Of a stretch of DNA of 64,000 nt, positions 10,064-16,000 are shown one piece after another. Source of the DNA: a virus; the IMG/VR virus record IMGVR_UViG_3300041955_001937, positions 8,727-72,726 of that record. The stretch is one strand, 5' to 3'. The position numbers were made by a program. The stretch's first letter is position 1. Each line of letters opens with the position of its first letter.

Positions 10064-13000
10064 AGCTTTAGACCCTACGACGGTTTAGCAAACCGCTGCT
10101 TTCGACCACTCAGCCACCTCTCCCGGCGCCTTGCGGATCGACCTGACTCCAAAATAGTAGCATGGCGGTGCGATAGAATCGGTTTACGTGCACCCGTAGC
10201 TCAGCTGGATAGAGCGTTTGCCTCCGAAGCAAAAGGTCGCTTGTTCGAATCAAGTCGGGTGCACCAATCCAAGTTATTAACTCTGAACAACTTCCCGGGA
10301 AACTAGTTCTCATAGCCTTCCGTTTTCGTGTGATGGAATGTGATGGAATCGTTGAAAAGACTGCGGTCCAGGGCCTTAACAGCCGCTCTGACCGATTCCG
10401 GAATTGCTTGAATGTAGACCCCGGCCGTCATGTCGGGTGACGCGTGGCGCAGGTGCGCTTGCACGTCCTTCACGTCCCCGTACTGCTTCATGAGCGTCCC
10501 GCAGCTCCGGCGAAGGGTCTGATGAGTCACCCGTTTCTGGTGGTCGCGAAGGACGCCTGCAGCTCTCTGTTCGTCGCTGAGGGCCTCGAAGGCGCGGGCG
10601 GCGGCAGTCTTGATAATCCGCTTCAGAACGTTGTCCGGCCTCAGCGGCGTGTTTTTCCGCGACGGGAAAATCAGAGCCTCAGCGGGCGCGGCGGGCGCCA
10701 GGTCGAGCCACCACTTCAGCTCCTGGCCGATCGATTCCGGTATCCAAACGCAAGCGATCGAAGCGTCCGTCTTGGGCTCTTTGAACAAACCCTTCCACGC
10801 CGCCTCATCGATCCTGAGATAACCATTGGGCAGAACGTCGTTGCGCCGGAGCGCAAACATTTCTCCCGGCCGGAGACCCAGCACGATGAACATGCGAACC
10901 AGCAGGCGATCACGGCCGCTCAGTTGCCCCACTACGGCGGAAATCTCCTGTTCGGCAAGATACGACCGTTTCGGTTTACGCAGCTTTGGCGTCTTAAGAC
11001 GGGCCACCGGACTCTTCCGGACCAGGTCCTGCTCGGAGGCTTCGGCGAAGATCGCCCCCAGTTGAACGCGAGCCTTCTTGTACGTGCTCTCGCTGTAGCG
11101 CGTAGCCAAGTCCTTGAGGAAGATCTGAACCTCGAAGCGCGTGACGGCGGAAAGCTGCATTGCGCCGAACCGGGGGAGGACGTGTGCCTCAACGATGGAA
11201 CAGTTTGTGCTCTTCGTCGACGCCGCCCACTGATCTTCAACGACCGGAAGATAGCGGCTCGTCCAGAATTCCTGCACCGTCATGGCGCCGGACGCGGGCG
11301 GTGCCTGCCGGGCCACGGGGGCGATCGCGCGGCCGTACTGATCGAGGTTGGTCCGGATGAAGTCCCGGAGTTCCTGTTCCGCTTCCCATTTCTTTTTGTC
11401 GGCCTTCCAGCCGAGGGTCAGCGACTTGTGGACCGCTTTCTCGGTGCCGTCGGGCAGCGTGACGTACTCGTAGTAGAAACCCTTCCAGTACTTCCGTTTC
11501 GTGCCCAGCTCCCGAACATGGCCTTCCTGATGCCGCAATCTGGGCATGCGTTTACACCTCGCTTTGAGCCATGTTACTTGCTCGTGCGACAGTGGCTCGA
11601 ATTGCCGGGCTGTGACTTGGAGCATTCAGCGGGCTCTCCTGTCCTTCGCCACGGCTGTCAACTGGCGGCGGACGGCGCCGATCTGCTCCTCAATGAAAGC
11701 CTCGACATCGCGCGCGCGAAAGCGCCGGGAGGATCCGCACAGAAGCGAAGGAATAGCCGGCTGCTGCGGCGTCCGGCCGCTGTGCTTGTAGACCCACATC
11801 CGGGACATCTGAAGCCACTGTGCGACCTCGTCGACGGTCAGGAGACGTTCGCGAGGAGCCGGGTCCGCAATGTCAGGTGCCGGAAACATGGGTTTCCTTC
11901 GCCGATTGTTCCAGCTCACGCTTCATGACACTGCGGATGAAGGCGCTCATCGTCTGTTCCCGCCTGGCCGCCTCAGCCTGCACCCGGGCGCGGAGTTCGT
12001 CGGGCCAACGCAAAGTTGTGTTGCGCGGATTGAGGTGATTTTGGGTAACATGGTGTGACTTTGCCATGACTTCACGGCTATTATGCGCATAGGTATCAGC
12101 AAAGTCAAGTCAGATTAAATGGAGAACCCGCCAGAGTATTCGTTGCGCCTCGGAAGGCTTGTGGCCGAACTGGGAATAAGTCAAGCCGAACTGTCAGCGC
12201 TGTCTTCGGTCGATCAGAGCACGGTCAGCTATTATCTTTCCGGTCGACGCGAGCCGGGCAAATTTGCGTGCATCGTATTTGCCGGTTTGTCGAAGTCCGC
12301 GGATGATCGGGCGTTTTGGCTTGCGCTGGCAGACATCTCGACGCGTCAGGGAGATCTCATTGAAGCCGCATTCGGGCGCAATGATCCGGAAAGCGAGAGG
12401 CGGCTTGTCTCAGTCCTGCTGCAATTCTGGTATCAGCCGGACGGACTCGTTTTGGAATCGCTTCGCGATTTATTGAAAAAGATGCTCTTTGGCGGACAAA
12501 AGCCTGGAATATGACTTACGTTTGGTTGACAACGCACGGGTAAAACGGTCTAATTTAATTCCAGTATGGGCTTGTTTCCCCGTCGGCGATCTCAACGTGA
12601 ACTGGAGCACCTGGCTCTACTCGAAAAGAACCTCCGGGAGGTGGCGGGAGTAATGTCGAAGTCCGACGCCGAGCCCGGCCCCCTGCGATTTTCCGAGGAC
12701 GCCCACGCTGAGTTGCAACGCGTTCCCAATCTCGTGGTTAAGGACGGAGATTCGCCCGACCAAGCTATTGAAACGTCGCCCGTCGAATCGGCGAAGAAGG
12801 CTGTTCGGGACGCTACGGATCAGTACGTGCGTGGCAACGACGGCGGGAACCTGTTCGTGCTTCTCCGTAAGATTGGGTGGGTCGCGTACCGGCTTTCAAT
12901 CGCTTGGATCGAAGCTGGCAGTCGGCGTGTACGCGTACTTCGCGCGTCATTCCGAAAGTCTGCGTAGCGCCGCTTCGAATTCGGCCTGGCTTTTCTCGGC

Positions 13001-16000
13001 CCTGCGGTCGATCTCTGCCAATTCCAAGGGGGACGGCTGCGCGATCCCCGTAAATTCGTCACCCTTCCGGCTCAGCAACACGGTCCAGGCAATGAAGCAT
13101 CCGATCTCGGCTGCCGGGAGCGCCGTTTGTACGGGCCAACTCCTCAAGTAGGACATTCCGAGGTAGCCGACCGCTTCCGCGATAACGTACGCGCCGAAGA
13201 TTCGCGCGTGGATGATCGAATTGGGGCGCGCCGGCGCGGGCGCAATGGCAGCGATCAGGTTCACAAACAGCAACCCGGCCGCGATTGCGATCGCCTCAGC
13301 CCGACGTACGAAGAACATGCCCTGTAACCACGGCATGAGCCACCGGGGTCCGCCGCGGATATCGCTCCAGACCATCGCGGCGGCCATCGTCATTCCGATA
13401 ACGCCCGCTGCGATCGCGAGCTGGCGCCGGGCGCGTTTGGCACGTGGATAGCCTTCGCAAGAGAGCGCAATGACCTCCCATGCCGCCAAACAGATGGCAG
13501 TGATCGCGAACGGCTGCAGGACAAGCCACATGCGCCGATAAAGCACGCTGGATGTCGGCAATGAAATGCTGGCCACGGCAAACACTAAATCGATCACCAG
13601 CGTTGACGCCAGGAATGGAAATCGCCGCGCCAGTCCGCTCGCGAAGATCCTCGCGACTGCGGCGGCTTCGGCCAGAATCGACACGCCACGAAGAGCGTCT
13701 TTCAGGTCGATCCCCGTATGCCCAACGGACATACGGGGATTTTCTCACTAAAGCAATTGCTTGTGCAATTACCTAACCCACGGGCAGACCGGGCAATCCG
13801 GGGGTGTACTGGCCACGCCGCTCAATGAGGCGAGACCCAGAAGCAGAGTGATGCTGATGATGAGCTTTTTCATGTTCGTTCTCCTATGGCCCTTAAGAAA
13901 GGGCTCGAACGAACTTTACCGCCGGAAAGTCACAGACGCCAGTGACTTTCGTTCATCGCTGGCCACAGGATTTTACGGAAGAACGGGCACGGGCAACAAG
14001 GCGAATGGATGGCGAAAGGAGAATGGATGGCGAAAAAAGGTCATAGACGCCAGTGACTCTTGGTTCGGTCACGGCGCTGGAGTTCGACCGATGATAGTCT
14101 ATTTCTCTCAAGTTCTCAATAAGTTTGAGAAGTTTAGTGCTTTTCAGCACGTCTATAGGAAATGCCCTTTCGTCATTCGTCAAATTGATTCTTCAAACTG
14201 CCGACGCGGCCGTGATCGAGCACACGCCGATGGTACGGGCGATCGCGCTGAGAGTGCTCCGGCAACTTCCACCGTCGTTTGAGCTGGACGATCTGGTGCA
14301 GGAGGGAATGGTCGGGCTGCTTGAAGCCCTTGAACGGTTCGATCCGGGCGCCGGCATTCCGTTTGCGATCTATGCGGCCTGCAGGGTGCGCGGGGCGATG
14401 CTGGATTCGGTCCGTGGGAACTACATCGCGGCGACCCACGAAGAGCTGGACGAGGAAGTCGGGCAGGCGGATCCGATTCTGGAACGTATTGAGTGGAGGG
14501 AGCGCACCACCATGGTCGCGGCGGCCGTCAGGACGCTTCCGGAGCGGGACCGCAAGGTGATCGAATTCCGGTCCTCGGGGATGACGATGCGCCAAGTTGG
14601 AAGTGCGGTCGGAGTCGGGAAGACGCGCGCGATCCAGTTGTGCCAAAGAGCCATCGGGCGGGTGCAGGAAAAGATCGCGGCTTGACGGGCGCGCAGAGAT
14701 AGGCGTTGATGAGAAATCATCTTTGCGCATCAATGCGCGTCTCGTCTATACTTGCCCTTTATGCCAGCTACCGCAACAGAGATCCCCGATGCCACGATGA
14801 CGAAACGCGAGGCCTGCGAATTCCTCGGCAAGTCGGCGCGGTCGGTCGTCGATTACGTTAAGGCGGGCAGGCTGTCCGTTGAGTATGTCAGCGGTCGCAC
14901 CGGACGTCAGGCGGTCTTCCACCGCGCCGAGGTCGAACGGCTCAAGCGGGACATCGAAACTCCCCTGGTGCGCCAAGGCTTCGCGACGTTGGCTGCGAGG
15001 AACGATGAGACGGAAAATGGCGTCACAGATTCCCGATTAATTCGTGACGCTCCGTTGGCAGCGCGGAGCCTGGCGGAGATGTTCCGCGCGGCTCTGCCAC
15101 AGTCGCCCGCGCCGAAGCCGTGGCTCGACTTGAAGGGCGCCGTCGAGTATTCCGGCCTTCCCGCGTCGTACCTGCTCTCGCAGGCAAGGGCCGGCAAGCC
15201 GTGGGCGATCAACGTGGGGTCGGAAAAGCAGGCGCGCTGGCGATTCAATCGCGACGCGTTGGCTGCCACCGCATGAGCCCTAAATAAAGTTTGCGCAGAG
15301 CCTGGCAGATACATTCCGCGTGGCTCTGCGAGCGGCCCCCCTGTCCGATCCCTCCGATTTTTCGACTTGAGGGAGTATGGGCAAACTGCTTTTACTCAAG
15401 ACGGCAACACCCGCGAATCGGTCCGCTCTCATCGATGAGGCGGGCGATATCAAGCTGAAGCTCGCCGCGTTCGCCGCTACCGGGGTGGAGCGCCGCGATA
15501 AGCAGCTCACCGAAGAATTCGCATCCTGGTATCCGGACAAGCCCGAAGAGGAGTTCATCGAAAAAGGTCAGCGGTACGAGCTGCGAATCTCGGCGCGGCG
15601 CAATGTCACCACGATCGATATTCGCGCGGCGTATAAAAAGCTGGGGCTGAGGAAATTTCTCTCGGCCTGCAGCCTGACGCTGAAAGCGCTGGCCGAGTTT
15701 CTTACCGAGCCGGAAGTGGACTGCCTTACCAGCACGGCGCGGACCGGGAGCAGGGCCTTTGTCACCACGCCGCTGGGCGTAGCGTCGCCAGCAGTGGGCG
15801 AGGATCGCCGGGACGCCGCGTGAGGAGTGCGATCCGGTGCTTGATTGACCAGGTACGCAGTTTTGGCCCGGTCGCTTCGCCAGTGCTCAAACAGGCGTCG
15901 CGTGATAGCTGCGGGAAATATAGGGCGATCCGGAAACAGCCTGCGCCGCAACCGGAGTCTGTGTGGGCCCGAGGCGTGTGCATCGCGTTGGCGAGTGAAC

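Follow-up and report, generated by a model that had tools for sequence, protein, structure and literature searches.

Very short membrane proteins can act from the periplasm on larger sensors; MgrB, which has periplasmic cysteines, acts in this way on PhoQ. In Agr systems the gene for a small precursor peptide lies beside that for a multi-pass membrane protein, and phages can carry host-derived copies of such peptide-signaling genes, for example the agr genes of phage phiCDHM1 (excerpt of PMC3901668). The substrates of secretion monitoring combine an N-terminal signal sequence and a C-terminal arrest segment with a stem-loop that masks the ribosome site of the next gene (excerpts of PMC10987492 and PMC7897499). 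Here we describe a pair of genes from a prophage, a 34-codon small open reading frame (ORF) with a signal-peptide-like start and, directly downstream, a gene for a protein with seven transmembrane helices (7TM), which, judging from their sequences and from their recurrence at other loci, probably form a conserved two-gene module whose parts work together. The pair lies in IMG/VR record IMGVR_UViG_3300041955_001937, classed there as a provirus, of which we analyzed bases 8727-72726 out of 72,726; this stretch of 64,000 nucleotides is called the window hereafter, and its first base is position 1 of all coordinates given for it.

The small ORF occupies positions 13873..13769 on the minus strand and encodes MKKLIISITLLLGLASLSGVASTPPDCPVCPWVR. 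Its ATG is preceded at a distance of 7 nt by the Shine-Dalgarno sequence AGGAG (13885-13881, minus strand), its N-terminus resembles a Sec signal peptide (n-region MKK, hydrophobic core, small residues GVAS), and its tail, STPPDCPVCPWVR, includes PPDCPVCPW, with a CxxC motif and four Pro among the last 14 residues; here and below, signal peptides were called by eye or by rule from the sequence, not with a trained predictor. From this layout we infer export, cleavage and a mature form of 12-13 residues. The 7TM gene (13732..12947, minus strand, 261 amino acids [aa]) starts 36 nt past the small-ORF stop codon. Both genes had been pointed out in the original prediction, made from the sequence alone, and both stand: the short ORF has the ribosome site, the signal-peptide-like start and the CxxC tail ascribed to it, and the protein encoded downstream on the same strand is modeled with seven helices and matches no Pfam family, a kinase domain included. 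In public gene calls the small-ORF product (P0154) occurs on four contigs and the 7TM product (P0001) on five; the largest contig has 295,912 bases. The small ORF matches no family in Pfam, PHROGs, NCBIfam or PADLOC, and the best score of an Atlas search with it, 0.80, is at chance level.

When set beside the described systems, the pair resembles MgrB-PhoQ in that a very short Sec- or membrane-targeted protein with a gene of its own would, as proposed here, act in the periplasm on a membrane sensor; it differs in its stand-alone seven-helix partner without a kinase, in the adjacency and co-conservation of the two genes and in the Pro-rich tail, and there is no sequence relation. It shares with Agr the small precursor gene beside a multi-pass membrane gene and the possibility of a host-derived copy on a phage. 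Unlike Agr, however, the pair comes with no AgrB match, no histidine kinase and no response regulator, the small protein begins with a classical signal peptide and lacks a C-terminal recognition tail, and the closest relatives belong to a diderm phylum. A phage-borne, predicted exported prepeptide near the lysogeny region also recalls arbitrium, from which the window module differs in being mainly chromosomal elsewhere. Neither arbitrium component was recovered: the NCBIfam profile for AimP (NF033802) aligned with residues 1-15 only, that is, with the signal peptide, at E 0.2 and with 11.9 bits, below the cut-off of 35, and none of 14 neighboring proteins scanned with Pfam is a tetratricopeptide repeat (TPR) receptor of the AimR kind, with no adjacent TPR/helix-turn-helix (HTH) gene and a 7TM membrane protein as the partner.

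To survey other occurrences of the pair, we scanned metagenome contigs with a family alignment (A7) and obtained five homologous loci, L003-L007. Two of these, L003 and L004, carry the same 7TM gene, 100% identical to the family member P0010, to which the 7TM proteins of L005 and L006 are 78% and 45% identical, respectively; L007 holds a distant member (27% identity over 111 residues in tblastn, E 4e-21 against the family profile). Among the loci with 190 nt or more of sequence ahead of the 7TM gene, which are the window and L004-L006, all four have, directly upstream, an ORF on the same strand that begins like a signal peptide and has a Pro-rich end, so that the search proposed in the original prediction, for signal-peptide ORFs ahead of 7TM homologs, came out positive at all three further loci. 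These ORFs lie at 1419-1601 in L004 (60 aa, 45 nt before the 7TM start), at 247-390 in L005 (47 aa, 47 nt before the start aligned with that of P0010 and 26 nt before the start of the longest ORF) and at 2039-2191 in L006 (50 aa, 56 nt before the 7TM start). The four loci represent approximately three lineages, given that L003 equals L004 and that L005 is 78% identical to L004. In L007, positions 1-110 contain, by eye, a strong Shine-Dalgarno sequence followed by a GTG-started ORF of 11 codons with three Pro and no signal peptide.

Signal-peptide-like ORFs of 30-70 aa are otherwise sparse, with 11 in 103.9 kb counted on both strands, or 0.053 per strand-kb under a loose rule that was written after the peptides had been seen; by our own arithmetic, the chance that such an ORF ends in a given 100-nt stretch is about 0.005. 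The last 14 residues of the four peptides hold 4, 6, 6 and 5 Pro, against a background of 4.9%. The peptides of L004, L005 and L006 align and have in common the motif N-x-R-V-x-V-T-D-x-P-[FY]-P, and AAGGAG stands at the matching position before the small ORF in L004 and L005. Between these two loci, 7 of the 47 codons of the small ORF differ synonymously and 15 non-synonymously, as against 59 and 51 of 235 in the 7TM gene, so that the peptide is the faster-evolving partner (15/47 versus 51/235 non-synonymous codons). In a FastTree phylogeny of 137 family rows, the clade of P0001-P0007 and that of P0010, L005 and L006 fall on opposite sides of the midpoint root; the largest clade, of 58 rows, contains none of the examined loci. 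Since the same kind of signal-peptide, Pro-rich ORF lies upstream at three further loci, the two genes probably constitute a conserved functional pair, and the recurrence in two distant clades, the ribosome sites and the common signal-peptide and Pro-rich design make co-function the best reading of these sequences. A predicted complex of the L004 7TM protein (70-row alignment) with residues 19-60 of its peptide scored 0.00 against a mark of 0.32, which counts neither way.

On sequence criteria, the window 7TM protein belongs to a genuine family that has no name. Searched exhaustively with HMMER, 1.84 billion cluster representatives yielded 141 proteins at E ≤ 1e-3, 15 at ≤ 1e-10 and four at ≤ 1e-30; nearly all 141 are about 230-290 aa long and most are matched over most of their length. 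Sixty members compared with Pfam gave two unrelated families only, each in a single member, and the window protein has no family in PHROGs, NCBIfam or PADLOC. A profile search of the sequences of solved structures with the 7TM protein found no meaningful match (the best hit was a designed coiled coil at E 0.011). In a word-indexed protein search the single protein retrieved itself and P0002 only, and a 60-row family alignment retrieved three proteins. The nearest ESM Atlas entries are "hypothetical protein" clusters of 50, 261 and 210 members in which Acidobacteriota is the commonest taxon. Twenty family representatives that we looked up came from metagenome assemblies and one NCBI record, and the only names found among them were "hypothetical protein" and, once, "Na+/melibiose symporter-like transporter." Described classes were considered and set aside: a 7TMR-DISM-type receptor (no Pfam 7TM module, no output domain and a cytoplasmic part of one helix, about 40 residues), a CPBP/Abi or PrsW protease (no Pfam or NCBIfam match, and E86, N171 and H175 do not make up the paired Glu/His motifs) and known anti-phage defense (no PADLOC family for the 7TM protein, the small ORF or P0010).

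The AlphaFold2 model of the 7TM protein (60-row alignment; predicted local distance difference test 94.1, predicted TM-score 0.87) has helices at residues 10-31, 39-54, 63-91, 98-126, 134-163, 170-195 and 198-219 and a C-terminal helix at 235-260, so that about 40 cytoplasmic residues forming a single helix follow transmembrane helix 7 (TM7). With a structural aligner independent of Foldseek, the top 50 matches to this model were all G-protein-coupled receptor (GPCR) or rhodopsin bundles, led by LYCHOS (8wr3_B; Z 12.6, root-mean-square deviation [rmsd] 4.3, 194 residues aligned) and the adhesion GPCR ADGRL3 (8jmt_A; Z 11.9, rmsd 3.8, 181 residues aligned), with identities of 5-14% in the listed rows. 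The best Foldseek rows from the PDB were likewise a designed GPCR-like fold, rhodopsins and GPCRs, at a TM-score of about 0.4; among Atlas structures, membrane domains of GGDEF/EAL proteins reached about 0.5 only, and the BFVD viral folds gave nothing at E ≤ 0.001. The modeled fold thus looks like a GPCR-type helix arrangement and is named as nothing beyond that, because Z-scores under approximately 13 can be generic. As modeled and predicted, the seven-helix arrangement, the N-out/C-in orientation and the helix after TM7 resemble those of GPCRs, of the GPCR-like domain of LYCHOS and of microbial rhodopsins; the protein has no profile match to solved chains, and no G-protein machinery is implied.

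Lys plus Arg average 8.8 in the predicted inner loops and 3.2 in the outer ones, and since the inner count exceeds the outer in all 60 members, an N-terminus outside and a C-terminus inside are supported. In the window protein, the predicted outer loops comprise residues 55-62, 127-133 and 196-197. Column conservation is 0.25 in the outer loops, 0.33 in the outer helix thirds, 0.46 in the inner thirds and 0.44 in the inner loops, and the cytoplasmic side as a whole is more conserved than the outer one (0.45 versus 0.31, Mann-Whitney p 9e-8). Y65, E86, N171, W216 and G224 are nearly invariant, and all except Y65 lie on the cytoplasmic side. A conserved inner face combined with a variable outer face is the pattern expected for a receptor with a diversifying ligand side.

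The sequence between the two genes is itself structured. On the minus strand of the window, a first predicted RNA hairpin (13774-13751) has a 10-bp stem that overlaps the small-ORF stop codon, and a second (13740-13710; inverted repeat I5, 93% complementary) has a 14-bp stem with a 3-nt loop and holds the 7TM start codon AUG (13732-13730) in its 5' arm. The 111-nt stretch with both hairpins has a minimum free energy of -45 kcal/mol (z -3.9), and none of 200 shuffles folds as well. A stable predicted stem-loop lies between the small ORF and the 7TM start at four of four loci. In L004-L006 the intergenic sequence is strongly conserved, with TAGGATA-AATC followed by CACAGGGCG...CGCCCTGTG, and forms a hairpin of 16 predicted pairs, one of them compensatory, that ends a few nt before the GUG start of the 7TM gene. 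Viewed as a non-coding element, with a GC-rich hairpin of 12-13 bp, it spans 1599-1652 in L004, 388-443 in L005 and 2200-2253 in L006, at loci whose flanking proteins share just 45-78% identity; Rfam contains no match to it.

We tentatively favor, as possible though short of probable, the reading that the exported peptide is a ligand or a small subunit acting on the outer face of the 7TM protein, because the partner combines a GPCR-type bundle with an N-out orientation, a variable outer and a conserved inner face and a helix after TM7. Under this reading, the small ORF and the 7TM gene would be a two-gene module native to Acidobacteriota-type chromosomes, of which a temperate phage would have acquired a diverged copy, carried in a regulatory or accessory region. 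The small protein would leave the cytoplasm via Sec and leave a short Pro-rich tail, with CxxC in the window, in the periplasm. Acidobacteriota are diderms, and because the nearest Atlas taxa are mostly Acidobacteriota, a Sec-exported peptide is expected to reach the periplasm only. The tail would work there on the GPCR-fold 7TM protein, at its variable outer face, and this protein would relay its own state through the conserved cytoplasmic face and the C-terminal helix to a cytoplasmic partner. The contact between peptide and 7TM protein, a signaling output and an effect on the phage are all inferred.

Several observations weigh against this interpretation. A word-indexed protein search with a 48-aa open frame for the window peptide found only the peptide itself, which is far shorter than those of L004, L005 and L006 and aligns with them in the signal peptide but not in the mature part. 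The pairing count has a base of four loci and leaves out the contigs of P0002-P0007 and the 58-row clade, and the 110 nt upstream of the 7TM gene in L007 contain no signal-peptide ORF. The aligner itself warns that a Z below about 13 can be generic for helical bundles, a range that includes the best value of 12.6, and Foldseek against the PDB returned nothing at E ≤ 1e-3. The conserved polar residues E86, N171, H175 and R144 would also suit an enzyme or an ion site, and the conserved intergenic stem-loop fits a cis-regulatory role too. Lastly, the N-terminal extensions of the long family members P0059, P0111 and P0120 have, by eye, neither a signal peptide nor a Pro-rich stretch; they look like over-extended gene calls, and no fused peptide-7TM form was found among these three.

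We also searched for the 7TM gene in viral and cellular sequences. In viral contigs, four pattern scans, one with the single 7TM protein and the others with alignments A5, A7 and A13, gave no other copy, tblastn of the 7TM protein against phage and plasmid records gave no match, and neither did one named Acidobacteriota plasmid record. Scans of metagenome contigs with alignment A1 and of species genomes with A1 and A5 returned no relative. Five distant relatives of the phage sigma gene were found on viral contigs, and none of the four inspected has a 7TM-type gene upstream. With the other copies found on chromosomes and none detected in further viral contigs or in phage and plasmid records, the prophage copy looks like a captured host module.

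The chromosomal copies have ordinary surroundings. L006, at the beginning of a 404-kb contig, has fabZ- and lpxA-like frames downstream, by eye, and a divergent gene upstream of the module that resembles a Cas10 palm (356-1990, minus strand). A gene for a GAF-PP2C phosphatase of the SpoIIE type precedes the module in L004 (30-1322). Such signaling-type neighbors are one case each, from which no pattern can be claimed. At the 3' end of the 7TM gene, L003 (941-1417, minus strand) and L006 (3002-3406, minus strand) have a convergent gene of 134-158 aa without a known family; the two products are 51% identical (E 2e-37), and the gene is perhaps a third component of the chromosomal module. The prophage copy lacks it and has an unrelated convergent ORF of 133 aa instead.

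The pair is located inside a prophage, in a regulatory or accessory region, as is evident from an integrase by a tRNA gene on its left and structural and packaging genes downstream. The tRNA-Arg gene (10190-10266, plus strand) adjoins a tyrosine integrase gene (10303-11625, minus), followed by genes for an HTH_17 protein (11626-11919, minus) and a ribbon-helix-helix protein (11873-12067, minus), an XRE-type HTH regulator (12119-12514, plus; 131 aa, HTH_3 at E 1.3e-6) and the convergent ORF without a known family (12566-12967, plus; 133 aa), which overlaps the 3' end of the 7TM gene by 21 nt. Beyond the small ORF and a gap of 250 bp lies a divergent sigma-70 family gene (14125-14685, plus; 186 aa, region 2 at E 2.2e-16, region 4 at E 0.004). 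The original prediction had placed the pair between a CI-like repressor and a FliA-like sigma gene; the position stands, with an HTH_3 regulator of the XRE type on the left and a sigma-70 gene on the right, and "FliA-like" holds only at the level of the sigma-70 family, while the claimed lack of an S24 peptidase domain in the repressor agrees with the Pfam scan. Farther right are genes for an excisionase-like HTH protein (14752-15276, plus), a second sigma factor (16539-17192, plus) and a NusG-like antiterminator (17490-18047, plus), and the two sigma-70 proteins together with the NusG-like protein, all encoded in the rightward early region of the prophage (14125-18047), suggest that the phage carries a transcription program of its own. 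These are followed by genes for a ParB-like nuclease or partition protein (20048-20635), a Mom-like DNA modification protein (20616-21248) and an AAA/clamp-loader-like protein with a C-terminal HTH (22485-23333, minus), by an ATP-dependent DNA ligase-like frame (24610-25716, minus) and, further downstream, by large terminase, portal, protease, major head (capsid) and tail-fiber genes. No exact repeat of the tRNA-Arg end of at least 14 nt, as would mark an attachment site, was found. To the left of both tRNA genes, positions 186-9955 look like part of a conjugative element, not of a phage, with genes at 548-1948 (DUF3991/Toprim protein), 2281-3993 (type IV coupling protein of the VirD4/TraG kind), 7023-8729 (KAP-type NTPase) and 8726-9955 (second tyrosine integrase, adjoining tRNA-Ser); the record classed as a provirus thus covers two distinct integrated elements.

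Leftward transcription of the small ORF and the 7TM gene could start from a sigma-70-like promoter match on the minus strand (14119-14091; TTGAGA-17-TATCAT, 10 of 12 positions, a consensus match only). Two 20-bp palindromes of the AGTCAC-N8-GTGACT type lie 111 bp apart at 13928-13947 and 14039-14058, a pattern that is not rarer than chance across the window (at least three matches in 15 of 100 shuffles), and two tandem 18-mers (13998-14033) stand between the promoter match and the small ORF. The repeats of 13926-14058, within the gap between the small ORF and the sigma gene, are candidate operator sites of a prophage switch. The window stretch is present in four DNA runs and, in small parts, in two RNA libraries from different studies. 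Across 11500-15500 the RNA-library contigs cover 13050-13343 and 13198-13440, both within the 7TM gene, and one of the two libraries additionally covers 15012-15183; the small ORF is outside this coverage, although contigs cannot show absence. Because these runs were found with the region itself and DNA carry-over is possible, the RNA contigs are only a weak hint that the 7TM gene is transcribed.

The strongest rival to a peptide acting on the 7TM protein is a cis-acting leader, of the secretion-monitoring type or a Pro-stalling upstream ORF, in which translation of the Pro-rich end, perhaps together with engagement of the signal peptide, would decide whether the stem-loop at the 7TM start opens, while the peptide itself would have no job. 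The layout mirrors the secretion-monitoring scheme as far as it is set out in the published excerpts (PMC10987492; PMC7897499): as in SecM-secA, MifM-yidC2 and VemP-secDF2, there is a signal sequence, rule-based here, in all four small ORFs, a C-terminus that contains Pro (and is Pro-rich at four of four loci) and a stem-loop at the next start. The position of the AUG within the 14-bp hairpin of the window, the conserved hairpin of L004-L006 that stops just short of the GUG, the faster evolution of the peptide and the short three-Pro ORF of L007, which has a strong ribosome site and no signal peptide, all suit a leader as well. However, unlike in those systems, the gene downstream is outside the protein-localization machinery, as the 7TM protein has no family, a GPCR-type fold and no sign of being a Sec or YidC component; the small ORF is also far shorter, and no RAPP- or SecM-like or other known arrest motif was seen. 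Judging from tunnel length, a ribosome that reaches the stop codon of a 34-codon ORF would still enclose the nascent chain, which would make force-sensing through the signal peptide impossible in the window. The start-proximal hairpins begin some way past the stop codon, about 11 nt in L004 and about 27-29 nt in the window and L006, and are not clearly within reach of a ribosome at the end of the ORF, and the signal peptide retained in all four small ORFs would be needless for a pure stalling leader. We consider a leader of this kind unlikely.

A small peptide gene, a hairpin and a multi-pass membrane gene are a common arrangement in peptide-product operons, where the hairpin would yield more peptide than membrane-protein message, and the 7TM protein could accordingly be the processing enzyme, exporter or immunity protein of a Sec-exported antimicrobial peptide that benefits the lysogen. 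The location among prophage accessory genes would suit such a benefit, and the near-invariant E86 and N171 might make up a catalytic or ion site together with the conserved H175; these residues, however, lie on the cytoplasmic side and not where an exported peptide would be, the tails are very short and acidic or neutral, unlike typical pore-forming peptides, and neither a CPBP/Abi, PrsW, AgrB, transporter or other Pfam or NCBIfam match nor, among the best 50 structural matches, a transporter-like fold was found, all of which makes this account decidedly unlikely. The original prediction had proposed a density signal, with lysogens releasing the peptide and the 7TM protein sensing it and biasing induction or phage sigma activity. 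The regulatory setting lends itself to this idea, as the pair is divergent from a sigma gene across a common 250-bp intergenic region with operator-like repeats, the XRE regulator has no S24 self-cleavage domain and phages do carry host-derived signaling genes such as agr in phiCDHM1 (excerpt of PMC3901668). Against it, the module is otherwise chromosomal and absent from the other viral contigs, phage and plasmid records and sigma-gene relatives examined, a 1.4-kDa Sec-exported peptide would not be expected to leave the periplasm of a likely diderm host freely, the repressor and sigma factor are linked to the receptor by adjacency only, and the window peptide has no detectable relatives and a mature part that does not align with the other peptides. 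What survives of that proposal is a conserved pair with a receptor-like 7TM build; a density signal into the lysis/lysogeny switch finds no support in the chromosomal copies and diderm taxa, and we give it very little credence. A related reading, in which a temperate phage of a diderm soil bacterium uses a captured host peptide-receptor pair, with a redox-sensitive CxxC loop and a GPCR-fold receptor, as a membrane-sensed input to the sigma-driven early program or the lysis/lysogeny decision, strikes us as very unlikely. The small ORF could, finally, be an untranslated chance frame beside a real 7TM gene, as it is short, has no sequence relatives and is covered by no RNA-library contig (which cannot show absence), but a strong AGGAG at the right spacing, the signal-peptide features with the Pro-rich tail and analogous ORFs at the same position of three further loci, against the sparse background given above, render this scarcely credible.

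The architecture of peptide and 7TM protein corresponds to no curated family or solved structure searched here, and no description of it came up in text searches on neighboring topics (bacterial GPCR-like 7TM proteins, phage agr, arrest peptides), none of which was aimed at the family itself, nameless as it is. If, as we tentatively favor, the peptide acts on the 7TM protein, the pair would be a bacterial peptide-receptor pair on a GPCR-type bundle without a kinase domain, in a family that appears widespread in a major and poorly studied soil phylum, and the phage copy would be another case of a virus borrowing host signaling parts, here in a diderm host. Should the pair moreover prove to be an input to the phage program, Acidobacteriota would have an unrecognized class of peptide-gated seven-helix receptors with kinase-free signaling. 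If the small ORF is a leader, secretion-linked translational control would extend beyond Sec and YidC genes. Under either reading, the pair provides a testable handle on about 141 sequence clusters that have no annotation.

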